From Gammaproteobacteria bacterium (GTDB taxonomy: Bacteria; Pseudomonadota; Gammaproteobacteria; HyVt-429): a DNA stretch of 64,000 nt. Below the pieces are notes generated by a model, which saw only the letters and a list, made by a program, of their open reading frames with translations, had not been told where the DNA came from and searched no databases. The stretch is from NCBI GenBank assembly GCA_013152415.1, contig JAADGI010000018.1, positions 13,046 through 77,045 of the forward strand, given 5' to 3'. The position numbers and the translations under genes were made by a program. This document shows positions 1,367-45,211 of the stretch, piece after piece. The number at the start of each line of letters is the position of its first letter. Position 1 is the first letter of the stretch.

Positions 1367-3640
1367 ATGACTATCCCTGCCCAAGACACCTCCGAGGCCC
1401 TGCAAAAGGCCCTGCACAACACCCGCCACAGGCGATTGCGTGCACTGAAAGATCGCTTTGCGCAGTGGAGTATTGCCGCTGGGGGAGTAGGGGTCATCAT
1501 CGCCATTGTGCTGATCTTCTTCTATCTGGTGTGGGTGACCCTGCCCCTGTTTCAGCCCGCATCCCTGCATAAAACCGCTCAATACCCAGCCCCAGGGGAT
1601 GCCGATGCAGTCACACGGTATCTGGCCATGGAGGAACAGCACGAGATTGGTGTGCGCTTTACCGACCGTGGTCAGGTGGTGTTTTTTGCCGCCAACAACG
1701 GAAAAATTATCTCCCAGGTCAATAGCAAACTGCCCAAGAATATTGGCATCACCAGCTTTACCGCCGGTGCCCCTAACAAGGCCACCGTGGCCTACGGCCT
1801 GGATGATGGCCGTGCCCAGGTCTTGCGCCATGTTTATGATGTGACCTTTCCTGGTGACCACAGACTGATTACACCCCGGCTGGAAAACCCACTGGGAGAC
1901 GCCCCCCTGGTGGTGGACCCCAAGAAACACCCCCTGGTACAACTCGCCGTTCAGGTCGGTGAGGATACCGCCACCCTGGTGGCGGCCACCGATGACCACC
2001 GGCTGCTGCTGCTGGGATTGGAAAAATCAGAGTCTTTACTCGATGATGGGGAGTGGACCACGACCCGTACCGAACTCCAGGCCCCAGCTGCCCCCATTAC
2101 ACACATCATCCTCAATCTGGACCAACGGGAACTCTACGCCGCCGACCAGGAAGGGCGTATCAGTTTTTATGACATCCGCGACAAATCCGCACCTCGCCTG
2201 GTGCACACGGTTGCCGCAGTCCGTGACGGCGTACAAATCAGTGCCTTACAATTCCTGTCCGGGGGAATCTCTATCATGGTAGGGGGATCCGATGGCAGCC
2301 TGAGCCAATGGTTTCCGGTACGTGATTCGCACAACAACTACACCTTGTCCGCCATTCGCCGTTTTGACCCCCTCACCGGTCCGGTCACGAGCATTACCCC
2401 GGAGTTTAGCCGTAAGGGTTTTATGGCGGCTGGCCAACGGGGCCAATTCAATATCTACCACAGCACCGCGCACAGCACCGTGCTGCGTAAAACACTGTCA
2501 AAATACAGTGTAAACCAATTGGCGATTGCACCCAGGGCCAATGCCTTGCTGCTGGAAGACGCCAGCCAACAGATACAGTTTTACCTCGTCGACAACGAGC
2601 ACCCTGAAATTTCATGGTCCTCACTTTGGAGCAAGGTGTGGTACGAGGGTTATGACGCACCGCAATATCTGTGGCAATCGTCTTCTGCCTCTAATGATTA
2701 CGAACCCAAATTCAGTCTGACGCCCATCACCTTCGGTACCCTCAAGGCGGCCTTCTACGCCATGTTGTTCGCCATACCCCTGGCCATCCTGGGTGCCATC
2801 TACACCTCCTATTTTATGGCGCCGCGCATGCGCAGACTGGTCAAGCCGAGCATCGAGATCATGGAGGCCCTGCCCACCGTAATCCTCGGTTTTCTGGCCG
2901 GACTATGGTTGGCGCCCTTTCTGGAGAAACACCTGCCGGGGGTATTTTCCCTGCTCATTATTCTGCCCGTGGGGGTGCTGTTATTTGCCTACCTTTGGCA
3001 GTGCGCACCCAAATTACTACGTGATTGTGTCCCCGAGGGTTGGGAGGGGGCGCTCCTCATCCCTGTCATTATCCTGATCAGTTGGGCGGCCATTTCCATC
3101 AGCCAACCCATGGAACAATGGTTCTTCCAGGGTGATATTCGCAAGTGGCTATCCAATGATATGGGCATCCAGTTTGACCAACGGAATTCCCTGGTGGTGG
3201 GGCTGGCGATGGGTTTTGCGGTCATCCCCACGATCTTTTCCATTGCCGAAGACGCCATATTTGGGGTGCCCAAGCACCTCACCCAAGGCTCCCTTGCCCT
3301 GGGGGCCACCCCCTGGCAAACCCTCAGCCGGGTTGTCATCCTCACCGCCAGCCCAGGTATCTTTTCCGCCATCATGATTGGGCTGGGTCGTGCGGTGGGC
3401 GAAACCATGATTGTGCTGATGGCCACCGGTAACACCCCGGTCATGGACTTCAGCATCTTCCAGGGCATGCGCACCCTGTCTGCCAATGTCGCCGTGGAAA
3501 TGCCTGAGGCCGAAGTGGGCAGCACCCACTACCGGGTGCTGTTTCTGGCGGCAACGGTGTTGTTTGCCGCCACATTTCTGTTCAACACCGCCGCAGAAGT
3601 CGTCAGACAACGGCTGCGTAAAAAATACAGCAACCTGTAG
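1367..3640 (+). CDS. pstC: Phosphate ABC transporter permease PstC, long form with a periplasmic beta-propeller-like domain
   Basis: C-terminal permease motifs GTLKAAFYAMLFAIP, EIMEALPTVILG, GSLALGATPWQT, GRAVGETM. First gene of the pstC-pstA-pstB-phoU run. Confidence 0.93.
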   Translation: MTIPAQDTSEALQKALHNTRHRRLRALKDRFAQWSIAAGGVGVIIAIVLIFFYLVWVTLPLFQPASLHKTAQYPAPGDADAVTRYLAMEEQHEIGVRFTDRGQVVFFAANNGKIISQVNSKLPKNIGITSFTAGAPNKATVAYGLDDGRAQVLRHVYDVTFPGDHRLITPRLENPLGDAPLVVDPKKHPLVQLAVQVGEDTATLVAATDDHRLLLLGLEKSESLLDDGEWTTTRTELQAPAAPITHIILNLDQRELYAADQEGRISFYDIRDKSAPRLVHTVAAVRDGVQISALQFLSGGISIMVGGSDGSLSQWFPVRDSHNNYTLSAIRRFDPLTGPVTSITPEFSRKGFMAAGQRGQFNIYHSTAHSTVLRKTLSKYSVNQLAIAPRANALLLEDASQQIQFYLVDNEHPEISWSSLWSKVWYEGYDAPQYLWQSSSASNDYEPKFSLTPITFGTLKAAFYAMLFAIPLAILGAIYTSYFMAPRMRRLVKPSIEIMEALPTVILGFLAGLWLAPFLEKHLPGVFSLLIILPVGVLLFAYLWQCAPKLLRDCVPEGWEGALLIPVIILISWAAISISQPMEQWFFQGDIRKWLSNDMGIQFDQRNSLVVGLAMGFAVIPTIFSIAEDAIFGVPKHLTQGSLALGATPWQTLSRVVILTASPGIFSAIMIGLGRAVGETMIVLMATGNTPVMDFSIFQGMRTLSANVAVEMPEAEVGSTHYRVLFLAATVLFAATFLFNTAAEVVRQRLRKKYSNL

Positions 3641-31067: not shown

Positions 31068-31145
31068 GGATCAGCCCTGACATACCAAACTGTCACCGGA
31101 TCTCAACGGCACCCTTTGTTGCCTTTTAAAAAACAGCACCACTTT

Positions 31146-32582
31146 ATGAATAAAATACACTGCAAACATCATCCTACTGCACCCGCAAGTTGGACGTGCG
31201 ACCAATGCGGCACAGATCTTTGTTCATCGTGCATCAAGCATGACTATTTGCCTGATAAAGTTGCCGTATGCCCAGTCTGCGACCAGAATTTACGTTCGCT
31301 TGGATCCGAAAATTTGATCCAGCCATTTTGGCTCCGAATACCAAGATTTTTTCTATTCCCCTTAAACATATCTTCCCTCTTGTACATTGGGGCATTGTCG
31401 CTAGTTAGCATTATTACATTTCAACCATCGCTTATCGGCTTGCTTTTTCAGTTAGCCATCTTTCTGGTTTTCCTAAAATATGCCTATGCTGTCCTGGCCC
31501 AACGAGCGGCCGGTTATGAAAGCCCACCCGAAATAAACGCAGATATGATCAACCAGGGATTAGATTTGCCCTTCAAACAGCTCGGCATATTTCTTCTTAT
31601 TGGGTTTATCGGTGGAGCTGTATACCGGAATACTGGACCAGTAGCGGCATACGTTTACGACATAATCATTAATCTCTTTATCCCTGCAACAGTTATGGTA
31701 TTAGCGATTGACAACAGTTTCTTTCGCGCAATAAACCCCATACTGCTGTTTTCCATTATTAGGCGAATGGGTTTGCCGTATCTAATACTCTGTATATTTC
31801 TTTTAATTTTACAGGGTGGGGGAGGATTAGTGATGAGTTTATTCGGTCGTCCTGAATCTTTCTTGGCAGCACTGTTTATCTTCAATATTTTTTCAATGTA
31901 TTTTTTACTCATTATGTTCAACATGATGGGATATGCGATATACCAACACCACGAAGCTCTGGGTTATCCAATTGAAATCGAACCTGATGAGCAAACGAGA
32001 AAAACCAATCAGGAATCAACAAAACAATATGTGGGCATGCCAAATGATATCGAAGTTCTCATTAAAGAAGGCCAAATAGCCAAAGTAGTTGGCCGTCTAA
32101 AAGCACTGATAAAAACACAGCCTGGCGAAATTTCAACTCATCGCCTACTCCATAAACTGGCTATGATGGCAAATGATACTGTTGCAGTGCTTGATAACGG
32201 AGAGAGCCTAATCTCTAAACTCATAGAACGCAATTACACCGGAGAAGCAGCGAGTGTTATTGTAGACATCATGACACTACAATCTTCATTTCAGATTGGA
32301 AATGCAGATCTAATATATCCACTTGCCAGACAGCTGGTTTCCACGGGAAAAGGGCAACATGCACTCGATATAATAAATGGATATGCTCAACGCTTCCCAC
32401 AACATCCTGATATCCCACGGCTGTATCTACTGGCCGCCAAGATACTTTGTGAAACATTAAAAAAGGACAATAGAGCCAAAGGACTACTGGTCAACCTACT
32501 AAAAACGTACCCGAAACACGAACTGGCACCTGAGATTGCATCATATCTAGAGGTGGTTAATAGGCTATCAACTTCGCACTAA
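31146..32582 (+). CDS. Membrane protein with N-terminal B-box-like Zn finger, multi-TM core and C-terminal TPR-like region
   Basis: CKHHP...C..C...LC..C...CPVC, about six hydrophobic segments, then helical repeats (FPQHPDIPRLYLLAAKIL...YPKH). AT-rich. Confidence 0.8.
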   Translation: MNKIHCKHHPTAPASWTCDQCGTDLCSSCIKHDYLPDKVAVCPVCDQNLRSLGSENLIQPFWLRIPRFFLFPLNISSLLYIGALSLVSIITFQPSLIGLLFQLAIFLVFLKYAYAVLAQRAAGYESPPEINADMINQGLDLPFKQLGIFLLIGFIGGAVYRNTGPVAAYVYDIIINLFIPATVMVLAIDNSFFRAINPILLFSIIRRMGLPYLILCIFLLILQGGGGLVMSLFGRPESFLAALFIFNIFSMYFLLIMFNMMGYAIYQHHEALGYPIEIEPDEQTRKTNQESTKQYVGMPNDIEVLIKEGQIAKVVGRLKALIKTQPGEISTHRLLHKLAMMANDTVAVLDNGESLISKLIERNYTGEAASVIVDIMTLQSSFQIGNADLIYPLARQLVSTGKGQHALDIINGYAQRFPQHPDIPRLYLLAAKILCETLKKDNRAKGLLVNLLKTYPKHELAPEIASYLEVVNRLSTSH

Positions 32583-32599
32583 CATACTGGCCCCAATCG

Positions 32600-34060
32600 C
32601 TAACAACGTTGACGTTTTGCAAGCTTGGCAGCATGGCTGCCTGAATATATATCAGAGAGTAATTTCAGATAATGCCTGTGCTTGTTTTCCTTGCCTTCAC
32701 GACAAAATGCGGTTGCTAGCATTAAGAGTCCATCTGGCAAGCCAGCCAAATCCTTATCTTTCTTAAGAAGATAGGTGAAGATTTGTTCGGCATTATTAGT
32801 GTAACCACCTTTGGCAAAACAAACCCCCAGTTCGCAAAACTCTTTTGATGACATTCTCATGGTGGGTCTGGCGTGCTTACTATAGTCCGAAAATATCTCG
32901 TTGGCTGTCATCAAATAATGTTGGTCACCCATGCCCATTTTGAGTAATTTAAGAGCGATGCTATGGTAGCCGTCAGACAACGGGTGCATCTTATTGATGC
33001 GATAGAGTTTCACCAACACTTCTTGATCATCGGGGTCGCGTTGTAACATCTCTTTAAACACTCGTTTGGCCTTCTCGAATTCCAATTCCGCCATAAAGTT
33101 CAAACCTCGTTCAAGATCACTTATGCGCCGTTGCTTCTCAGATGACTCATTAATGTAGTCAAAATCTACAGTCCGAAATACCTTCGCTTGCAGCAAACCG
33201 ATTGCTGCACCGCCTAAATACCCCCCAATATGCACGACATAAGCAATCCTCTGGTAGCCATTAAAAACACCATACCACTCGTTCAGCAGCCATAAGGGTA
33301 TAAGAATAATGGCTGGCGCTTTTACAAAATCAAAATAAAAGACTATCCAATAAAAAAATCTTATTTTACGCACACCAAAAAGTACTGAGTAGAGACCCAT
33401 TACTGCACTAATAGCGCCCGAGGCTCCAAGAACCGAACGGTCTGGATACACTAGAGCCCAAAGTCCTATTGACAACAACCCACCCAAAATATAAGAAAAA
33501 AAGAACTGGGTATGTCCTAATATTCGCTCTACTGCAAAACCGACAATGAATAGAAATAGCATGTTGCCCACAAGGTGGCCTAGGCTACCGTGTAGAAATG
33601 CAGATGTTATATATGTAATGGCATCGTTACGATGGAAGGAATAATTATTTGTTACCAAGCGGCCATACATTCGGTCGAATTTAATTCGAGAAAGTTTCCA
33701 TTTAATAAATTTGGGATGCGCGATAGTTATGATTTCATTGCGATGGAGTTTTTCCATAAACTCGCCAGTATATTGAATATCATAGAATATCCACATTGCC
33801 TGTTTATTTTGACTTACTGATTCCCTCACAGAGGCTGAATGTTCATACTCACCAACGCTACTTAGATAATCAGCAAATAGCGGAAACTCTATGACATGCA
33901 ATTTAGCTGCAAAGTAATAGTTTGATGCTTGTGCTAGCCTTTTAGCATCGCCCCCTTGAATAACAAAAAAAACAAATATGTTAATCAGCACTAAAGCGAT
34001 GGTGACAAATGGAGGATTTTTCCAATTAATATTCTTTTCTAGAGGTATGAGTAACAACAC
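32600..34060 (-). CDS. Rhomboid intramembrane serine protease with C-terminal TPR-like region
   Basis: FLHGSLGHLVGNM (HxxxxHxxxN), GASGA (catalytic Ser), AYVVHIGG (catalytic His). AT-rich. GTG start. Confidence 0.9.
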   Translation of the reverse strand: MLLLIPLEKNINWKNPPFVTIALVLINIFVFFVIQGGDAKRLAQASNYYFAAKLHVIEFPLFADYLSSVGEYEHSASVRESVSQNKQAMWIFYDIQYTGEFMEKLHRNEIITIAHPKFIKWKLSRIKFDRMYGRLVTNNYSFHRNDAITYITSAFLHGSLGHLVGNMLFLFIVGFAVERILGHTQFFFSYILGGLLSIGLWALVYPDRSVLGASGAISAVMGLYSVLFGVRKIRFFYWIVFYFDFVKAPAIILIPLWLLNEWYGVFNGYQRIAYVVHIGGYLGGAAIGLLQAKVFRTVDFDYINESSEKQRRISDLERGLNFMAELEFEKAKRVFKEMLQRDPDDQEVLVKLYRINKMHPLSDGYHSIALKLLKMGMGDQHYLMTANEIFSDYSKHARPTMRMSSKEFCELGVCFAKGGYTNNAEQIFTYLLKKDKDLAGLPDGLLMLATAFCREGKENKHRHYLKLLSDIYSGSHAAKLAKRQRC

Positions 34061-34295: not shown

Positions 34296-34325
34296 AAAAC
34301 CCTAATGCGTTGGGATTAGGGTTTT
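34296..34325. repeat. 11-bp inverted repeat in a long divergent intergenic region
   Basis: AAAACCCTAAT-GCGTTGGG-ATTAGGGTTTT. Confidence 0.6.
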
Positions 34326-34706
34326 CTGTAGAGTCCAGACGACCAGTCAGTCTATGGTATGCGCCATCAAGGTATAGAACATATCGCCGTGCCAGGTTTG
34401 ACATGGACGAAGGATGGCAGTCCGCCAAGGAACAGGCACCGGGAGAGTAGCCTGTTGCATAAGGCCCCATGGACGGGGCCTTACTCTCCCACCAAAAATA
34501 ACAAGCCCCGAATGATGCGCACGGGCAACTCAGTCAGCCCCTTACACATACAAATTAACGCCCCAGGGCACTCAAATCGGCCTGATTATTCCGTCACAGG
34601 CGCTATAATATTAGCAATTCCCCTTATACTGAGCTCGTAGCCATGGCATGATCATTTTCTGGTCACCCACAGCGGATTGAAACGACACAGTGGACACGGG
34701 CGCACA

Positions 34707-36011
34707 ATGAATAAAGTCATTAAGAACGTCCCATATGAAGATGAAGTACACGTTGTCAAGCCAGCGACGACACAATCGCTGGCGCACAATTCTGACCTGA
34801 TTTACAACGTCCTCACCGCAGTTTCCAAGGCCCACGCCGAGGGCAAAGCCGCCCTGGTCGAACGTTATGGCTTTACCCGTACCCAGGCAGAAACCATCGC
34901 CCGTCTTTCTGCCCACGAACTCCATCGTCTTAGTGATCCCAAGCTCAAATTATTTAACATGCATATGGACACGGATGCACTGGATCACATGCTCGTACAT
35001 ATGCAAAAAGAGGAACGGCACCGGGCGCTTCAAGATCGACTGCTTTCTCTGGGTGCCCCTGCACCACTGATGCAAGAACTCTTTGGCTGGAGCGCCCAGG
35101 ACTGCGCTGACCGCCGCAAGGCCTTAGACATTTCCGGAGCCGATACGGGACGCCCCCGGCGCACCACTGAAGAGGAAGACCAAGCCATCTGGAAATCGTG
35201 GAATGGAAGCCTGGGAATGACCAAGGCTGAACGCTATGAGACAGTGGCCAGCGAGACCGGGATGCGACTCAATTTGATCTGGGCCCAGGTCAAAGGCTGG
35301 ACCAATGAAGGAGTACCCCTGTCTGAAAATGATTCTTTTATTGAGGACTCACAAAACACGCCCATTTCAGAACGGGTACCCCCGATCATTTCTAAAAGCA
35401 AAACCTCCCTGCGGCGCAGACTGTGGCATCGCTTCACACACCGCCCGGACTCCGAGCACGATCAGGCACTAATACGCCTGTTCGCTGCACCCTGCCTGAT
35501 AGCCTATGGTTATTTTGTGGCACCCTACGATCAATATGCCGCACTACAGCTAGCAGAAACCCAACGTATGCTGCTATTGGTAGGGGCAGTCTTCTTCACT
35601 GTCACCGTCCTGCTTACCCTGTCTATCTTAATCTGGCCAAAGACTGTTGAATCGAGACGTTACGCCTCTATCTGCCTGGATGTCGTGGGGTGTACCATTT
35701 TTATTGGCTACCTGGGTGACTTTGGCGTCCTATTCTACGTCATGTATCTATGGGCCATTGTCGGTGGTGGTTTTCGTTATGGCGTCAACTACTTGATTGT
35801 CGCCACCGTGGTCTCCATGACAGGGTTTAGTATTGTATTCTCCATCCACCCCTACTGGCAGTCCCTTGGGGCCATACCCTACTGCTTACTCGCTGGTCTG
35901 TTTGTCGTCCCGGCCTGGACACTGGCCTGGATGCACAGCAAAACACGGGCCCAGCGGCGCGCTCAACAGGTGCGTATTGGTGTACATACCATATTGCCCT
36001 ATCTGGAATAG
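34707..36011 (+). CDS. Fusion of a DUF2857 (STY4526/YPO1902, BisC-like) domain and an RpfC/RpfH-like membrane sensor domain
   Basis: N-half: DRLLSLGAP..LMQELFG.S....A.RR..L...GRP....EEED..IW..W...L.LIW. C-half: RPDSEHDQALIR...SRR....LD...YLW...G.GFRYG..YL...PYW...LL.GL...P. One uninterrupted frame with no HisKA domain. Confidence 0.8.
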   Translation: MNKVIKNVPYEDEVHVVKPATTQSLAHNSDLIYNVLTAVSKAHAEGKAALVERYGFTRTQAETIARLSAHELHRLSDPKLKLFNMHMDTDALDHMLVHMQKEERHRALQDRLLSLGAPAPLMQELFGWSAQDCADRRKALDISGADTGRPRRTTEEEDQAIWKSWNGSLGMTKAERYETVASETGMRLNLIWAQVKGWTNEGVPLSENDSFIEDSQNTPISERVPPIISKSKTSLRRRLWHRFTHRPDSEHDQALIRLFAAPCLIAYGYFVAPYDQYAALQLAETQRMLLLVGAVFFTVTVLLTLSILIWPKTVESRRYASICLDVVGCTIFIGYLGDFGVLFYVMYLWAIVGGGFRYGVNYLIVATVVSMTGFSIVFSIHPYWQSLGAIPYCLLAGLFVVPAWTLAWMHSKTRAQRRAQQVRIGVHTILPYLE

Positions 36012-36052
36012 GCCTGGCTCCATATGTGGGATATTGAAATACGGTGACGCCC

Positions 36053-37120
36053 CTACCCAGGGGGGTGATAGTTAAGGGCGGTCAGTACGGTCCAAGTGGG
36101 ATGAAATTGATCATAGGCATCCCCACTTTGATAGTAGGAAGATGTCCAGGACCCCTGCCTATCCTGAAGGCCAAGAAGGTACCGTTCAGCATCCCGCAAC
36201 TTGGGTAACTCACTATACCCAAGAATCTTTAGGCAATGGACAAACTCGGCAAGAAGATCCCTATCGTTCACAATATCACGCACGGTGTCGAAATGCGCAA
36301 GAAGATAGCCTTCCAACCTTTGTCTAAGCTTGTTTTTTACTGGAGCATGCCGCCCAAAATCAGACATCACAAAGATTAAATGGGTGACATAATAATTCTG
36401 TAAGGAATACTTATCGGCAACGGTATACTCGTACACGAGATCCAAATCCACCAGCTTGGCAAGATACCGATCAAGTACCCCCTGGGGCAGGGCCAAATCA
36501 ATCTTGGGAAATCGCCTTTGCAAACGATCTGGGTAATAAGCGTTGATAACAAGGTCTGTCAATTTTGAGTAGTCTTTCGATATAACGGCGTTATCAAAGA
36601 TGGATTCTTGTTCTGCCCACGGTAACTGATCAAAACCCAAGCGATAGTAGTCCGCAAACTTGTTCACCTCGACACCATATTTGTACACATAAGGCAAAAT
36701 GGCGATAAATTGCTGCCTGGCTGAATCGGTGATAGGGAAGACGGCAGACAAACGCCCCGCCAACCGGCCTAGGGCCTGGCGTGACAGTGCCTCGACATAT
36801 CCCTCCATGGCGGAACCCTGGCTGCCTGTCGCCAGTTCCTCCAGCATAAGCAGATAGTCGGGGGCGATATATTCAAATCGGTTGTCGTCATCTACAAGCG
36901 CCAACACCCACTGCAAACCCCCCAATATGGCATACTCACGGGAGTCGGCTTTGAGCTGATTTTTATCTCGATCAATGGCCCAACAGACTGGGGTGTGGTG
37001 TGTCAGTTGGCAGCGGGGCGAAACCGAATCTACAAGAGCACCCTGTGCCAGGGCAATAGACCCCACACCTAAAAGCCACAGCAGTAATCTCAGTCTCTTG
37101 TATTTCACCACCACCTCCAA
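36053..37120 (-). CDS. Exported hypothetical protein with an alpha/alpha-barrel-like C-terminus (DUF6895-like)
   Basis: Signal peptide (ALA/Q). YYVTHLIFVMSDFG, DLLAEF, YLLGLQDRQGSW (QxxxGxW), FHPTW. Confidence 0.65.
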   Translation of the reverse strand: MEVVVKYKRLRLLLWLLGVGSIALAQGALVDSVSPRCQLTHHTPVCWAIDRDKNQLKADSREYAILGGLQWVLALVDDDNRFEYIAPDYLLMLEELATGSQGSAMEGYVEALSRQALGRLAGRLSAVFPITDSARQQFIAILPYVYKYGVEVNKFADYYRLGFDQLPWAEQESIFDNAVISKDYSKLTDLVINAYYPDRLQRRFPKIDLALPQGVLDRYLAKLVDLDLVYEYTVADKYSLQNYYVTHLIFVMSDFGRHAPVKNKLRQRLEGYLLAHFDTVRDIVNDRDLLAEFVHCLKILGYSELPKLRDAERYLLGLQDRQGSWTSSYYQSGDAYDQFHPTWTVLTALNYHPPG

Positions 37121-39946: not shown

Positions 39947-42900
39947 ATGGATCACGACCCCCTAAGGCGCGTTCTTTTTGTACTGTGGTTGTTGGTGCCA
40001 ACCACACTCTACGCCGCCCCCCTGAAACCCGACCGGGTCCCCGAACCCCTCAAACCCTGGGTCGAATGGGCCCTCCACGGTGAAGAACAAAAGACCTGTC
40101 CCTTCACCTACAACAACGAAAAACAACACTATTGCGCCTGGCCCAGCGAACTGCAACTGGAGCTGGATACACGTCAGGGCCAATTTGAACAACGCTGGCA
40201 AGTGCATAGTGAATCCTGGGCGGCACTGCCGGGCAGCCCCAAACACTGGCCCCAGTCGGTGAAGGTCGATGGCCAACCGGCGGTGGTACTCAACCGTGGC
40301 GGTCGACCCACCCTCAAACTGGCAGCCGGCACACATACCGTTGAGGGCAGGTTCACCTGGGACCGCCTCCCCGAATCCCTGTCCATCCCCAGGACCACGG
40401 GTCTGGTGGGTCTCAAGATCAAAAATCGCACAGTCCCTTTCCCAAATTTGGACACAGGGGGTCGCCTGTGGCTGCGGGAGCGGGATACCGACGCTAACAA
40501 AACCAAGCTAGGGGACCGCGTAGAGGTACAAGTCTATCGACGTATTGGGGACTCGATCCCCATGCAGATCACCACCCGCCTGGACCTCACCGTCTCCGGC
40601 ACCCAGCGGGAGATCGTGTTGGGTCCGGTCCTGCTCACTGAGGCCATTCCCCTGAAACTGAAAAGCACCCTGCCCGTGCGCCTGGAGGCAGACGGTCGCC
40701 TGCGTATACAAGTGCGTCCGGGGCGCTGGCAGATCGACTTGGTGGTGCGGTTCCCCGACCCACGCACCCAGTTGTCGGCCCCCGAGACGGGACCGCCCTG
40801 GCCTAAAGACGAGGTCTGGGTACTCGATGCCCGTAACGCGTTGCGCCTGGTGGAGGTCCAGGGGGTCACTCCTATAGACCCCCGCCAGACCAACCTGCCC
40901 AAGGACTGGAAAGACCTTCCCGCCTATCGCATGGGCAAAGGGGAGGTGTTCTCCCTCAAGATATTGCGTCGCGGTGACCCGTCCCCGGAACCCAATGCCC
41001 TCAAATTGCAGCGTACCCTGTGGCTGGATTTTGACGGCGGCGGTTACACCATCAAGGACAATATCAGTGGCCGCATGACCCAGGGTTGGCGCTTGGCCAT
41101 GTCAAACCCCACCCACCTGGGCCGTGTCACCGTCGACGGCAAACCCCAATTCATCACCCGGCTACAAGGTGAGGCCGAGGACGGCATAGAGGTTCGCCGG
41201 GGCGCCATCAGGCTGGAAGCCGACAGCCGCCTGGATAAAGCTGATCGTCGCCTACCGGTAGTGGGCTGGAACCAGGATTTTCAATCTGTCAGCGGCGAAC
41301 TCAACCTGCCCCCAGGCTGGCGCCTGCTCGCTGCCAACGGTGTGGACAAGGTCCCCGGCACTTGGCTGCAACGCTGGACCCTGCTCGACCTGTTCCTGGT
41401 GTTGATCGCCGCCGTCACCACCCTGCGCCTGTGGGACTGGCGAGGTGGGCTGCTGGCCCTGGTCACCCTGGGCCTGGTCTGGCACGAACCGGGGGCACCA
41501 CAAAATGTCTGGCTCAACATCCTCGCCGCCATCGCGCTGCTGCGGGTGCTGCCCGCCAATCGTTTGCGCACTGCGGTGACGTGGTATCGCAACGCCAGCC
41601 TCCTGGCCCTGGTGTTGATCGCCATCCCCTTCATGATCGATCAGGTACGCACCGGCCTGTACCCGCAACTGGAACGGCCCGGGCAACTTCGGCTCCTCGA
41701 CACACGCACGGATGACCGCCTTGAGATCACAGAACTCGCCGCACCCTTGGTGCAAAAACAGTTACTTGGTGCAATGAAGGCACAGACGGCCAAGCCAAAA
41801 CCCGCCTACAAGGATAAACACACTCGCAAGTTGCGATCAAAAATGCTCTATTCCCCGCAACAACAGGCCATTGACATCAATCAGCAAATCGACCCCAAGG
41901 CCCATATCCAAACCGGACCGGGCATCCCCAACTGGCGTTGGACCCGCATCCCCCTGAGTTGGAGTGGGCCGGTCAAAAAAGATCAAACCATGTCCCTGGT
42001 ATTGCTGTCCCCAGCATCCAATATGATCTTACAGTTTATTCAAATCCTGTTGCTGTTGGCCCTGGCCCTGTTCTTATCAGGGGTGATGCGAATCACAAAC
42101 AAAGGTATCCGCCTGGGCGCCCCCGTTCTGATGGCCGCATTGCTGGCAGGCAACCTGTTGGCACTGACACCCTCACCGGCACAGGCCGACATACCCACAC
42201 CAGAAATATTGAAGACTCTTAAGGAACGTTTGTTGGCACCCCCCGAGTGCCTGCCTCAATGCGCCCAGATTCCACGGCTGCAGTTGCAGCTGTCGCCCCA
42301 CACCTTGAGCGCCCGCATGGAGATACACACCCAGGAGGCCGTGGCGGTACCCCTGCCCGGTCACGCCAAACATTGGTTGCCCACTGAGGTCTTGGTCGAC
42401 GGCAAAATGGCCCAGGGCCTGTTCCGTAAAAATGGTGGGCTGTGGCTACAGCTTGCCCCCGGCAGACACCAAATCCTCATGGCCGGGCCTCTGCCCCAAC
42501 GCAACAATCTGGAATTGCCCCTGCCCCTGCGGCCCCATCATGTGCGCATCACCACCAAGGGGTGGTCCGTGGACGGCGTCCATGAAAACGGGCTTGTCGA
42601 TCAACAACTGCAACTTACCCGCAGTCGCGGCAGCGCCCCCCGCTTGCAGACACTTCAGTCCGACACCCTGCCACCCTTTGTCCGCGTGGTACGCACCCTG
42701 CACCTGGGACTCGACTGGCGGCTCGAGACCCGCGTGGTACGTGCCTCACCCAAGGGTGCGGCAATCTTGCTGGAAGTCCCCCTGCTCGGCAAAGAATCGG
42801 TGACCACCGATGGGGTGCGCATCAAGGATGGCAAAGTCCTGGTCAACATGTCCGCCGGTCAAACACGGATGGTCTGGCATTCAACCCTGGAGAAACAGGA

Positions 42901-44047
42901 CAGTCTCACCCTCACCGCCGCAGACACCTCCCGGTGGGTGGAGCAATGGCGTCTCGATGTGAGTCCCATCTGGCATCCCACCTTCTCCGGCATCCCGGTG
43001 GTACACCACCAAAACCGGGGCCAATGGTTACCCACCTGGCAACCCTGGCCCGGCGAATCCATCACCCTGAAAATACACCGCCCACAAGGCGTGGACGGAC
43101 GGACCCTTACTATTGATAGCAGTCAACTCAGTGTAGAACCCGGTCTACGGGCCACGGACCTGACTCTGAATTTCTCACTGCGCAGCAGTCAGGGCGGACA
43201 ACACACAATTACGATTCCCGAGGGGACACAATTACAATCGGTGACCATCAACAGCCGCCCCCAACCCATACGCCAGGACGGCAACAAGATCACCTTGCCC
43301 GTTGTCCCCGGCAGCCAGCGTGTCGTGCTTAAACTACGCAGCGACCAGGGCATCAAGACCGGGTTGACCACCCCGGCCATCCACCTGGGTGCGGCCAGCG
43401 TGAACCATCGACTGCACCTGACCCTGCCCCGGGATCGCTGGGTCTTGTTTGTAGGCGGACCAGACCTGGGACCGGCGGTGTTATTTTGGGGGGTACTCAT
43501 CGTGTTGGTCCTGTTGGCCTGGGGACTTGGCCGGATACCGTTGACGCCCCTGAAACATTGGCACTGGTTATTGTTGTTGATCGGCCTGAGCCAAGTCCCA
43601 GTATGGACGGGAGCCACCGTCGTGGCCTGGTTACTGGTACTGGGGATGCGGGCACGACTGGACGCAAACATCGGTCAACAACGTTTTGATCTCATGCAGA
43701 TCACCATTGTCCTACTGACCGTGCTCGCACTGTTGTTGTTATTCAACGCCGTGAAACAGGGCTTGCTGGGTACACCGGACATGCAGATTGCCGGTAACGG
43801 CTCCCACGCCTTCCGCCTCAACTGGTACCAGGACCGCAGCGGTGAAACCCTGCCCACCGCTTGGGTCGCATCGGTGCCGCTGTTTATCTACCGGTTTCTT
43901 ATGCTGGCCTGGGCACTATGGTTGGCCTTCGCCCTGCTACGCTGGTTGCGTTGGGGCTGGGAGTGCTTTGCCACCAATGGGCTGTGGCGTAAAGTGGCGG
44001 AAAAGAAAACGACAAAGAAAACAAAAAAGGGCGTCAAGAAAAAGTGA
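39947..44047 (+). CDS. Large hypothetical integral membrane protein (1366 aa) made of two homologous halves
   Basis: Long ORF with host-like composition, a signal peptide, and two beta-rich extracytoplasmic modules each followed by a TM bundle. Confidence 0.85.
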   Translation: MDHDPLRRVLFVLWLLVPTTLYAAPLKPDRVPEPLKPWVEWALHGEEQKTCPFTYNNEKQHYCAWPSELQLELDTRQGQFEQRWQVHSESWAALPGSPKHWPQSVKVDGQPAVVLNRGGRPTLKLAAGTHTVEGRFTWDRLPESLSIPRTTGLVGLKIKNRTVPFPNLDTGGRLWLRERDTDANKTKLGDRVEVQVYRRIGDSIPMQITTRLDLTVSGTQREIVLGPVLLTEAIPLKLKSTLPVRLEADGRLRIQVRPGRWQIDLVVRFPDPRTQLSAPETGPPWPKDEVWVLDARNALRLVEVQGVTPIDPRQTNLPKDWKDLPAYRMGKGEVFSLKILRRGDPSPEPNALKLQRTLWLDFDGGGYTIKDNISGRMTQGWRLAMSNPTHLGRVTVDGKPQFITRLQGEAEDGIEVRRGAIRLEADSRLDKADRRLPVVGWNQDFQSVSGELNLPPGWRLLAANGVDKVPGTWLQRWTLLDLFLVLIAAVTTLRLWDWRGGLLALVTLGLVWHEPGAPQNVWLNILAAIALLRVLPANRLRTAVTWYRNASLLALVLIAIPFMIDQVRTGLYPQLERPGQLRLLDTRTDDRLEITELAAPLVQKQLLGAMKAQTAKPKPAYKDKHTRKLRSKMLYSPQQQAIDINQQIDPKAHIQTGPGIPNWRWTRIPLSWSGPVKKDQTMSLVLLSPASNMILQFIQILLLLALALFLSGVMRITNKGIRLGAPVLMAALLAGNLLALTPSPAQADIPTPEILKTLKERLLAPPECLPQCAQIPRLQLQLSPHTLSARMEIHTQEAVAVPLPGHAKHWLPTEVLVDGKMAQGLFRKNGGLWLQLAPGRHQILMAGPLPQRNNLELPLPLRPHHVRITTKGWSVDGVHENGLVDQQLQLTRSRGSAPRLQTLQSDTLPPFVRVVRTLHLGLDWRLETRVVRASPKGAAILLEVPLLGKESVTTDGVRIKDGKVLVNMSAGQTRMVWHSTLEKQDSLTLTAADTSRWVEQWRLDVSPIWHPTFSGIPVVHHQNRGQWLPTWQPWPGESITLKIHRPQGVDGRTLTIDSSQLSVEPGLRATDLTLNFSLRSSQGGQHTITIPEGTQLQSVTINSRPQPIRQDGNKITLPVVPGSQRVVLKLRSDQGIKTGLTTPAIHLGAASVNHRLHLTLPRDRWVLFVGGPDLGPAVLFWGVLIVLVLLAWGLGRIPLTPLKHWHWLLLLIGLSQVPVWTGATVVAWLLVLGMRARLDANIGQQRFDLMQITIVLLTVLALLLLFNAVKQGLLGTPDMQIAGNGSHAFRLNWYQDRSGETLPTAWVASVPLFIYRFLMLAWALWLAFALLRWLRWGWECFATNGLWRKVAEKKTTKKTKKGVKKK

Positions 44048-44051
44048 ATAT

Positions 44052-44203
44052 CCTCTCCCTCCAGGAGAGGGAATGAAGTCATTCTGGCAAAAGCCAGAAT
44101 CCAGTAATTATTTAATTCTTTGTCGCTGAGGCACAAAGAAAGACCCGTACTTCTTGGCTCTGGGATAAAACGCAAAGGTCGCGGAGGCGCCAAGGACGCA
44201 GAG
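44052..44203. repeat. Cluster of different short REP-like hairpins and repeats
   Basis: CCTCTCC-N5-GGAGAGG (44052-44070); GTC-ATTCTGGC-AAAA-GCCAGAAT-CCAG (44078-44104); degenerate CGCAAAGG/CGCGGAGG/CGCCAAGG/CGCAGAG run (44171-44203). Confidence 0.6.
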
Positions 44204-44344
44204 ATATAAAACAATCCAAACCGGACTATCCAAACATGGAAAGATACACCTCTATCTGGAACAATATATCCATAATATGGAAAGTGAATTTAATAACACT
44301 ATTATCTGTATAAATAAAATCGCGCCACGTATATGAATTAGAGA

Positions 44345-45211
44345 ATGGAAGAAATACATAACATAATAAAAAAATACAATAAAGGTCATGTTGATGATAG
44401 CCTGAATTCCTTAGAGGATATCAAAGCCTTTTCGCTGGTGTTTTTTAAAGATGTTTCAGAAGTATATGATTGCATAACGAGATTAAAAAACACAAAAAGG
44501 AACCCCACTGGGTATTCATTAGATGATGCGCCTATAATTGCGTTATTAGTTAAAATATGGAAACTTCTTAAAGAAATAATTGTGTATTATGAAAAAGACA
44601 ATGCTGAAATAATTAGTTTATTTGAACGCCCGCTAATCGAATCTTCAGTGACGGCTAGTTATTTATTAAAATCAAACAGCCAAGCAATAGAAGACTATAG
44701 AAAAATATCTTACAAAGATCGCTTGAGGATATTACGAGAACTAAAAGAAGGATCTGCTTTCTACGAGACAAAAGCCGGAAAAAGATTATTGAAATCTGTT
44801 CAAGAAAAAATGAATTTTGAAAAGTTGACAATTGATGACTTTCAAGAACAAAAACGAAATAGATGGCGGTTACAAAACAAGTCTTTTTTCGATATTTTCA
44901 AGGAGATTGAAGGGAAAGATCTTTACGCTTGTACATACGGCATGATGTCTGAAGCTGTACATTGCTCTTGGAATGACTCTTTAGATTGGTGTCTAAGTAA
45001 AAACGATGATGATACTTTTGATGTTTATCCTTTCTACCAAACCGCTGACATTCGTCACATATCGCCAACTTTAGTATTTTGCAATCGACCATATAAACTT
45101 TGGCTGCAACACATAGATATAACAGATACATATATAAATGATGTGTTGCAGTGGATTGAAAATATAAACTCTATGATATATGTTGCCTTCGATGAATTAT
45201 ATGATGAGTAA
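44345..45211 (+). CDS. DUF5677-like protein, very AT-rich and probably acquired horizontally
   Basis: ERPLIESSV.ASYL and YGMMSEAVHCSW patterns. Two sampled 60-nt lines had 15 and 19 G+C. Confidence 0.7.
   Translation: MEEIHNIIKKYNKGHVDDSLNSLEDIKAFSLVFFKDVSEVYDCITRLKNTKRNPTGYSLDDAPIIALLVKIWKLLKEIIVYYEKDNAEIISLFERPLIESSVTASYLLKSNSQAIEDYRKISYKDRLRILRELKEGSAFYETKAGKRLLKSVQEKMNFEKLTIDDFQEQKRNRWRLQNKSFFDIFKEIEGKDLYACTYGMMSEAVHCSWNDSLDWCLSKNDDDTFDVYPFYQTADIRHISPTLVFCNRPYKLWLQHIDITDTYINDVLQWIENINSMIYVAFDELYDE

Follow-up and report, generated by a model that had tools for sequence, protein, structure and literature searches.

Introduction

The closest described relatives of the gene reported here, a single uninterrupted frame of 434 amino acids at 34707-36011 (+ strand) of a 64,000-nucleotide window from a gammaproteobacterium (GCA_013152415.1, contig JAADGI010000018.1; source genome G000, 92.9% complete), come from integrative and conjugative elements (ICEs) and from membrane receptors for fatty-acid signals. 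The ICE gene bisC lies directly after bisD in the ICE core, and chromatin immunoprecipitation (ChIP) of the ICEclc BisC yields sharp peaks at promoters that contain a weak palindrome (PMC12409273). RpfC of Xanthomonas campestris requires its residues R15, D17, S18, E19 and Q22 to sense diffusible signal factor (DSF; PMC5391125) and, according to excerpts of 10.1101/2022.01.03.474871, to sense BDSF too, and RpfH is described in a section of PMC4517397 as a copy of the input domain of RpfC that lacks the kinase. A precedent for joining a kinase sensor to a DNA-binding domain is Neisseria Rsp, in which the membrane receptor of PilS and the DNA-binding domain of PilR share one chain that represses pilA (PMC10269533, passages on Rsp).

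Like BisC, the protein studied here carries a full DUF2857 domain with the GRP motif and the conserved Trp residues; unlike BisC, it is fused to a membrane domain, forms a clade of its own and has no bisD, parA, AcaB, inrR or relaxase context. With RpfC and PA1396 it shares a homologous input domain (including equivalents of the five residues above and the RR..D, WxxxGxGxRYG and PYW motifs), but it has no HisKA, HATPase, REC or Hpt, places its output domain N-terminally, has a remodelled tail, is unlinked to rpfF and rpfG, and is predicted to have six helices with the N-terminus inside versus the published five with the N-terminus outside. RpfH, compared by description only, is also kinase-less, but it has no DNA-binding domain and lies within the rpf cluster, whereas the fusion lies outside it. 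As in transmembrane transcription regulators, a predicted DNA-binding domain and membrane helices are found in one chain. ToxR and CadC combine a winged helix, a single membrane helix and a periplasmic sensor; unlike them, the fusion has no Trans_reg_C match (Pfam to E 1), and its six predicted helices are connected by short outer loops. Judged from its sequence by their defining features, the fusion belongs to none of the BisDC, RpfC, RpfH and ToxR families, and by analogy it is predicted to work like a transmembrane transcription regulator, with Neisseria Rsp as the nearest precedent. Excerpts of the DUF2857 literature (including PMC7423338 and PMC13637380) mention no membrane fusion of this domain, the term "DUF" is absent from the main text of a survey of transmembrane regulators (PMC10269533), and a search by title or abstract start, with most subscription papers outside it, returned no report of this architecture or of a six-helix RpfC.

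Architecture of the fusion gene

The N-terminal half matches PF11198 (DUF2857) at 124.4 bits (gathering cut-off 36.8) over model positions 3-173 of 174, which delimits a BisC-type, predicted DNA-binding domain at aa 34-200 (34806-35306, +). It is followed by a variable linker (aa 201-232; 35307-35402, +), the least conserved segment of the protein, with high divergence and a predicted local distance difference test (pLDDT) below 50, and then by an RpfC-type input domain (aa 237-423) whose matches (E about 1e-13) include proteins annotated as "sensor histidine kinase RpfC". No Pfam family scored above its cut-off in this second half (the best was DUF4118, 19 bits). Its relatives at E<=0.001 number 1670 cluster representatives. 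The top 150 are mostly 700-1000 aa long with the match at their N-terminus, and relatives checked in Pfam include histidine kinases and a GGDEF protein. Similarity to RpfC continues up to about residue 423-426; the chain stops where the kinase His box would start, with no Pfam match to a HisKA-HATPase-REC-Hpt output. A first, sequence-only reading of this locus, which had described one frame joining a DUF2857/BisC domain to an RpfC-type sensor truncated ahead of its kinase, is thus borne out for both halves, but it set the start of the membrane region too early (near 35409): the first membrane helix begins near 35466, and 35403-35465 encodes an amphipathic helix and the RxDSExxQ motif.

The join is also covered by contigs from other sequencing runs, two of which (X2 and X5) are recorded as hydrothermal vent metagenomes. 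Contig X2 (record 10) covers 34615-36138 unbroken, with 74 differences and no gap within the frame, and contigs X4 and X5 bridge 35003-35581 with a linker that is diverged but equal in length. Because these contigs span the join, the fusion is not a misassembly at the linker, a concern raised by the sequence-only reading. A full-length structure model was poor (pLDDT 60, predicted template modelling score 0.39) and uninformative on contacts between the domains.

Distribution and selection

At 90% identity, full-length fusions form ten clusters (P0001-6, P0171-3 and P0175, P0001 being the query), nine of them retrieved by protein searches and the tenth, P0175, via the cluster of a fragment; DUF2857 was scanned in Pfam here for seven clusters and taken from precomputed matches for the other three. 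Identity to the query across these clusters is 40-95% for the N-domain and 29-91% for the membrane domain, and the closest named relative (88% identical) comes from an Acidiferrobacteraceae bin. With at most four candidates scored per genome, a full-length match was found in two of 400 class-level genomes, G000 and its sister genome G001 (94% complete, 180 contigs), and among 401 phylum-level genomes in G000 only. Searches of viral contigs returned no relative, and plasmid searches matched single halves only (17 records for the C-half, 12 for the N-half).

Between the fusion gene and its counterpart at the locus of the nearest relative (L003; Nei-Gojobori estimates for this one pair), the ratio of non-synonymous to synonymous divergence (dN/dS) is 0.095 overall, 0.027 in the DUF2857 part (aa 24-200), 0.096 in the membrane part and 0.05 in the C-terminal tail, versus 0.36 in the linker (aa 201-236), so that both domains are under purifying selection. 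The fusion, found in ten clusters and with low dN/dS, is therefore neither unique to this genome nor evolving neutrally, as the sequence-only reading had feared it might be. The gene is chromosomal and syntenic within the genus, and its dS (0.70) is similar to that of six neighbouring genes (0.71-0.98), a value consistent with a chromosomal locus passed on vertically.

One relative's locus (L004) carries two fusion paralogues in tandem (940-2280 and about 2281-3105, the second cut by the contig end). These have diverged (47% identity in the N-domain, 39% in the membrane domain), and their sensor motifs differ, which suggests different ligands. P0172 and P0173, each listed with a contig of 11839 bases, probably form a second tandem pair; each groups with one L004 copy in both the N-domain and the membrane-domain trees, which places the duplication before the separation of those two lineages.

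Sensor motif and C-terminal tail

Conserved residues identify the RPDSEHDQ motif (aa 246-253; 35442-35465, +) with R15-Q22 of X. campestris RpfC, R246, D248, S249, E250 and Q253 being the equivalents of R15, D17, S18, E19 and Q22 (numbering transferred by motif match rather than by direct alignment to the X. campestris sequence). Arg, Asp, Glu and Gln are kept in all ten fusion clusters and Ser or Thr in eight, the other two being paralogues without Ser/Thr. Beyond the membrane region, residue conservation points to a predicted cytoplasmic C-terminal helix (aa 410-434; 35934-36008, +) which would be a remodelled kinase juxtamembrane helix without HisKA. Here R417 and R423 occur in ten of ten fusion clusters, whereas among 139 non-fusion relatives Arg stands at position 417 in 15% and is outside the top three residues at 423; Leu412, 88% conserved in the relatives, is mostly replaced in the fusions (Lys in 5/10, Gln in 2/10). 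This remodelling suggests a new, fusion-specific job for the tail.

Membrane topology

RpfC is drawn with five helices and a periplasmic 22-aa sensor in the relevant passages of PMC5391125. In our alignments, the mean number of Lys plus Arg residues alternates along successive flanks and loops (4.3/0.6/2.5/0.06/1.8/0.5/3.6 over 140 sequences and 5.9/1.0/2.6/0/1.6/0.3/4.9 over the ten fusion rows, with segment borders set manually from the hydrophobicity profile), which matches six crossings with both ends inside. Tandem RpfC-type input domains, found in nine stored proteins of seven clusters (P0022, P0024, P0027, P0039, P0090, P0122 and P0139), provide a second line of evidence: in four of the seven clusters 5-8 residues separate the last helix of one domain from the following sensor motif, with the kinase after the last copy, and joins this short place both domain ends on one membrane side. 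For S. maltophilia RpfC-1, excerpts of PMC4517397 report 5+5 helices, an arrangement which, with the first copy N-out, would by our reasoning leave the kinase outside. The tandem-domain proteins are kinase-like in the four sequences read, and the RpfC-type input domain also precedes GGDEF (P0007, P0008, P0021 and P0100).

A model of aa 232-434 (pLDDT 95.4, 140 sequences) matched ImcA (8wcn; Z 14.2, root-mean-square deviation (rmsd) 3.5, 177 residues aligned), adenylyl cyclases 5 and 9 (8sl3, Z 13.4, rmsd 4.0, 178 aligned, and 6r3q, Z 11.9, rmsd 4.0, 173 aligned) and Cya (7yzi; Z 9.1, rmsd 5.4, 153 aligned). A Z near 13 is borderline for helical bundles, and the support lies in finding four membrane signalling proteins among the top five matches. 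Foldseek gave no match at E<=0.001 for either structure model, DSSP fuses helices 3 and 4 of the membrane model, and the 6TM_PilS, MASE2 and MASE8 feature clusters were matched at scores all below 0.9, as leads only. Cya itself has six helices and a cytosolic N-terminus (PMC9433096, structural description). The fusion would thus share a predicted six-helix fold with the class III cyclase anchors (Cya/Rv1625c, AC5, AC9), ImcA and CqsS, at about 10% sequence identity; their signal exits helix 6 into a catalytic domain absent in the fusion. From the model, the charge alternation and the tandem-domain joins, we strongly infer six helices (aa 254-409; 35466-35933, +) with both ends, and hence the DUF2857 half, in the cytoplasm.

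Predicted DNA-binding half and upstream palindrome

As its homologue BisC shows ChIP peaks, the DUF2857 half is predicted to bind DNA. Its first part (aa about 22-108; 34770-35030, +) resembles FlhD in several matches that are each weak and mutually consistent (Pfam E 0.003-0.008, below cut-off; PDB 8j56 at E 0.009; for the structure model, 8j56_A at Z 7.3 and rmsd 2.8 over 64/65 residues, and 1g8e_B at Foldseek probability 0.92, E 2.8). A helix-turn-helix-like stretch ending in GRPRR (aa 107-154; 35025-35168, +) is weakly similar to the FlhC N-terminus when compared with four FlhC-like proteins, one of them Pfam-checked (hhalign P 0.005, probability only 7%), and is a lead only; the GRP motif, the conserved Trp residues and the helix-turn-helix-like positions are all kept. 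FlhC carries a Cys4 zinc site. The DUF2857 domain has one Cys and hence no such site and, unlike FlhDC, it is a single chain, with no FlhC found in G000. Sequence comparison and predicted structure together raise the possibility that DUF2857, perhaps in all BisC proteins, may be a single-chain FlhD/FlhC-like protein; in excerpts of PMC7423338, the similarity reported for BisC is to FlhC only.

Upstream of the fusion gene, 411 bp from its start, lies an inverted repeat, AAAANCCT-N14-AGGNTTTT (34296-34325), which is a candidate operator. Exact copies occur once in G000, once in G001 at the same place, and not in G002 or G003, two genomes without the fusion (G003 being from the same family as G000). 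The same arms and spacing are found about 520 bp before the tandem pair of L004, in a leader of 69% GC, with an exact match in none of 3000 shuffles of that leader; since the pattern was derived from these same sequences, the independent part is the left arm at the same spacing, for which the chance is about 1.5e-4 over 11 spacings. Genome-wide, G000 holds one exact, two one-mismatch and 21 two-mismatch sites at spacing 14, and 13-19 two-mismatch sites at four other spacings. One two-mismatch copy lies 373 bp upstream of the rpfC start (G000:C23:27627; 5/3000 shuffles) and is a lead only, because pattern and threshold were chosen post hoc. The palindrome is a candidate autoregulatory site but could also be a terminator-like hairpin; its fixed 14-bp spacing and differing inner sequence favour a protein site, short of proof. 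The leader further contains a hairpin element (34441-34490, +; z -3.3) that is conserved in L003, and it gave no credible Rfam match and no sigma-70-like site on its + strand.

Origin of the fusion

The ten fusion DUF2857 domains form one clade against 13 ICE or stand-alone domains (support 95/97, in a tree with a midpoint root only and long branches among the ICE rows). In the membrane-domain tree (37 rows), nine fusions form one clade (98/97) and P0175 groups with two kinases (92/79), yet holding all ten membrane halves together is not rejected by the approximately unbiased (AU) test (p-AU 0.40; 67 rows, two long rows excluded). One origin of the fusion is therefore likely, although a second sensor capture in P0175 could also account for these sequences. 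Because BisC is widespread in ICEs and the fusion rare, the transfer would have run from an ICE BisC to the chromosomal fusion. Thirteen of 25 listed places with a stand-alone DUF2857 were examined; in twelve of them a bisD-like gene stands immediately upstream, and the remaining locus begins at the end of its contig. The closest ICE DUF2857 found (G202, L129) is about 31% identical to the fusion domain and sits in a complete ICE core of FlhC-like, ParA, ParB-like, DUF2857 and AcaB genes. As for the membrane half, the RpfC of G000 is 31% identical to it and not its sister, and a recent copy of the host's own rpfC was rejected as its source on account of this identity and the separate branch.

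ICE and rpf genes in the source genome and its relatives

G000 encodes one DUF2857 only. The ParB domain of BisD (TIGR03764) had no match in G000 or G001 (the control, G202, was positive), and a profile of 12 BisD C-termini reached a best E of 0.9 over 24901 frames of G000; with the genome 92.9% complete, the BisD domain is not found rather than absent. The downstream ICE orf, AcaB/inrR, ICE TraC and relaxase were likewise not found in G000, and the window contains no tRNA. The fusion gene is flanked by a rhomboid gene and a DUF6895-like gene rather than set in a BisDC arrangement. In G001, G001:C5 (L162) and G001:C42:5342-5524 hold PFGI-1-type ICE transfer-gene fragments (a TraC end, further conserved ICE-like genes and a relaxase piece, on short contigs of a binned genome), and neither a stand-alone DUF2857 nor bisD was found in that assembly.

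The fusion gene lies on contig C6 and rpfC-rpfF on contig C23, in agreement with the earlier statement that the window (not every gene of which is annotated) contains no rpfF. At C23 27907-31469, an RpfC-type hybrid kinase gene faces an enoyl-CoA-hydratase gene in the rpfC-rpfF layout: the kinase (887 aa; L084 7905-10568, +) has HisKA, HATPase, REC and Hpt domains, and the convergent RpfF-like gene (L084 10575-11465, -) has close homologues in many of the RpfC-type-gene loci examined. Together they constitute a probable DSF system, as judged from sequence, in a vent gammaproteobacterium, with no adjacent rpfG; the best REC plus HD-GYP match (167 bits) is unlinked, on C16, and does not establish an RpfG orthologue. 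The membrane half of the fusion matches this rpfF-adjacent kinase at E 2e-23. Divergent from rpfC is a gene for a 152-aa protein without Pfam match (L084 6962-7420, -), homologues of which (42-46% identity) stand beside the same major facilitator superfamily (MFS) gene in G002 and G003.

The rpf genes and the fusion do not always occur together. G003 has rpfC and rpfF without the fusion, and in G001 the 3' end of rpfC survives as a 128-aa Hpt-only frame with its own ATG (G001:C172; L163 5454-5810; L154), directly adjoining a LysR gene with no rpfF between. The same LysR gene appears to follow rpfF in G000, across a microsatellite contig break, and the DSF system has thus apparently decayed in the sister genome.

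Proposed function and alternatives

We favour, with a probability of roughly 55%, a reading in which a domesticated ICE activator serves as a chromosomal, membrane-bound one-component regulator gated by a lipid-like signal. A ToxR-like membrane regulator had been suggested at the outset, and it is supported by the conservation of the gene, the predicted cytoplasmic position of its DUF2857 half and the conserved upstream palindrome. The rpfC-rpfF pair of G000, the five retained DSF-essential positions and the ChIP peaks of ICEclc BisC count in its favour as well. A single old fusion event would have placed a BisC-type DNA-binding domain from an ICE in front of a six-helix receptor of the RpfC type, yielding a protein that would dimerise and bind a fixed-spacing palindrome, including its own upstream copy. 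A lipid-like ligand, possibly supplied by neighbouring cells, would bind to the helix bundle and to the RxDSExxQ motif at the inner leaflet and shift the amphipathic helix together with the freed, basic helix of the C-terminus; this shift would alter DNA binding or polymerase contact, replacing the BisD input, with either activation or repression as the outcome. Six-helix cyclase anchors can indeed act as receptors for lipophilic ligands (PMC4821796, passages on cyclase anchors). A DSF-family fatty acid is the first candidate ligand, which we propose tentatively and at clearly less than even odds, and the fullest version, in which one protein, independent of BisD, would be both receptor and transcription factor for DSF-family fatty acids and the tandem paralogues would respond to different ligands, is somewhat more doubtful still.

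Several observations weigh against this regulator, chief among them that a BisD partner is missing, that the linker is loose and sits on the non-canonical side of the sensor, and that G001 appears to have lost rpfF. ICEclc BisC alone is inactive at promoters and needs the BisD C-terminal domain (PMC12409273, excerpts), and no BisD-like domain was found in G000. In kinases and cyclases the signal exits through the last helix, whereas the output domain of the fusion sits at the opposite end via a variable linker of ~30 aa, which argues against tight mechanical coupling. G001 retains the fusion but has no rpfF match, including at the syntenic site, which counts against a simple self-signalling story. 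The sensor motif, present in 70-99% of 139 non-fusion relatives, is near-universal in the domain family and so marks an intact domain rather than a specific ligand; moreover, changing RpfC A21 to Asp cut the response to 52% (PMC5391125), and the fusion has D252 at this position, though 85% of its relatives have Glu there. With no second exact palindrome and two-mismatch copies at background, no regulon is visible. Finally, reporter fusions placed the N-terminus of PA1396 outside, followed by five helices (PMC6536496, excerpts), a topology that would put the DUF2857 half in the periplasm, and our cytoplasmic-facing topology is a prediction at odds with them.

The alternative that survives best, although improbable, is that the membrane domain keeps the DNA-binding half away from its targets until proteolytic cleavage of the linker, perhaps following ligand binding, sets it free. 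The length, disorder and variability of the linker speak for this, as does a rhomboid-family protease gene lying divergently next door (32600-34060). However, rhomboids cut within or beside membrane helices, this rhomboid gene is not at the L003 site, and conservation of the sensor motif and of the C-terminal arginines exceeds the needs of an anchor.

Slightly less probable is interference with ICEs, in which a host BisC look-alike would bind the BisD or the promoters of an incoming ICE and damp or trigger its transfer according to cell density. The association of stand-alone DUF2857 with bisD-like genes (12/13 loci) fits such an encounter, and the PFGI-1-type fragments of G001 suggest that such elements may visit the genus, although these are short contigs of a binned genome. 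Against it, ICE core and transfer genes were not found in G000, no exact or one-mismatch copy of the palindrome occurs in the ICE loci scanned, and the fusion domain shares only about 31% identity with the closest ICE BisC found yet is selected more strongly than six neighbouring genes, a poor match to a protein chasing changing ICE partners. The suggestion of a decoy for resident ICEs, made in the sequence-only reading, hence finds little support.

More unlikely again is an RpfH-like accessory role, with the membrane half pairing with RpfC or titrating DSF and DUF2857 acting as a protein-interaction module. Input domains do occur kinase-less or doubled in rpf systems (PMC4517397, excerpts), and G000 has an RpfC; but the gene is unlinked to rpfC, the two input domains are not sisters, G001 has kept the fusion although only the Hpt frame of its rpfC is left, and the GRP motif and helix-turn-helix-like positions are conserved. 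That the gene arose by the accidental joining of two gene remnants or by faulty assembly, to which its rarity might point, is extremely improbable and was rejected on the ten clusters, the purifying selection on both domains and the contigs across the linker.

Neighbouring genes

The rhomboid gene belongs to a convergent low-GC pair (40-42%) encoding a B-box/tetratricopeptide repeat (TPR)-like membrane protein (31116-32582, +) and a rhomboid protease with TPR repeats (32600-34060, -); the pair is missing from the equivalent L003 site, where another gene is found. On the other side, 36053-37120 (-), which converges on the fusion gene and shows conserved synteny with L003, encodes a 355-aa protein with a partial DUF6895 match (38.9 bits). 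Further downstream, a 1366-aa membrane-type protein without Pfam match (39947-44047, +; 60% GC) is followed by a stretch of 35% GC (44001-45000).

Implications

Whatever function it has, the fusion, together with its tandem-domain relatives, calls into question the published topology of RpfC and PA1396 (five helices, N-out), a matter of relevance to the DSF-binding site and to the design of inhibitors. If the proposed reading is true, all RpfC-type receptors would carry their DSF-binding motif at the cytoplasmic side of a six-helix bundle resembling the cyclase anchors. RpfC-type membrane sensing of DSF is kinase-based in the cited literature; the fusion would short-cut this route to DNA in one chain, and vent gammaproteobacteria would respond to, or eavesdrop on, DSF without a phosphorelay or cyclic di-GMP. 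The protein could also reveal how BisC functions without BisD, and it represents a compact design for a fatty-acid biosensor. It would, moreover, be a clear example of a host capturing the master activator of a mobile element and rewiring it to a signal.

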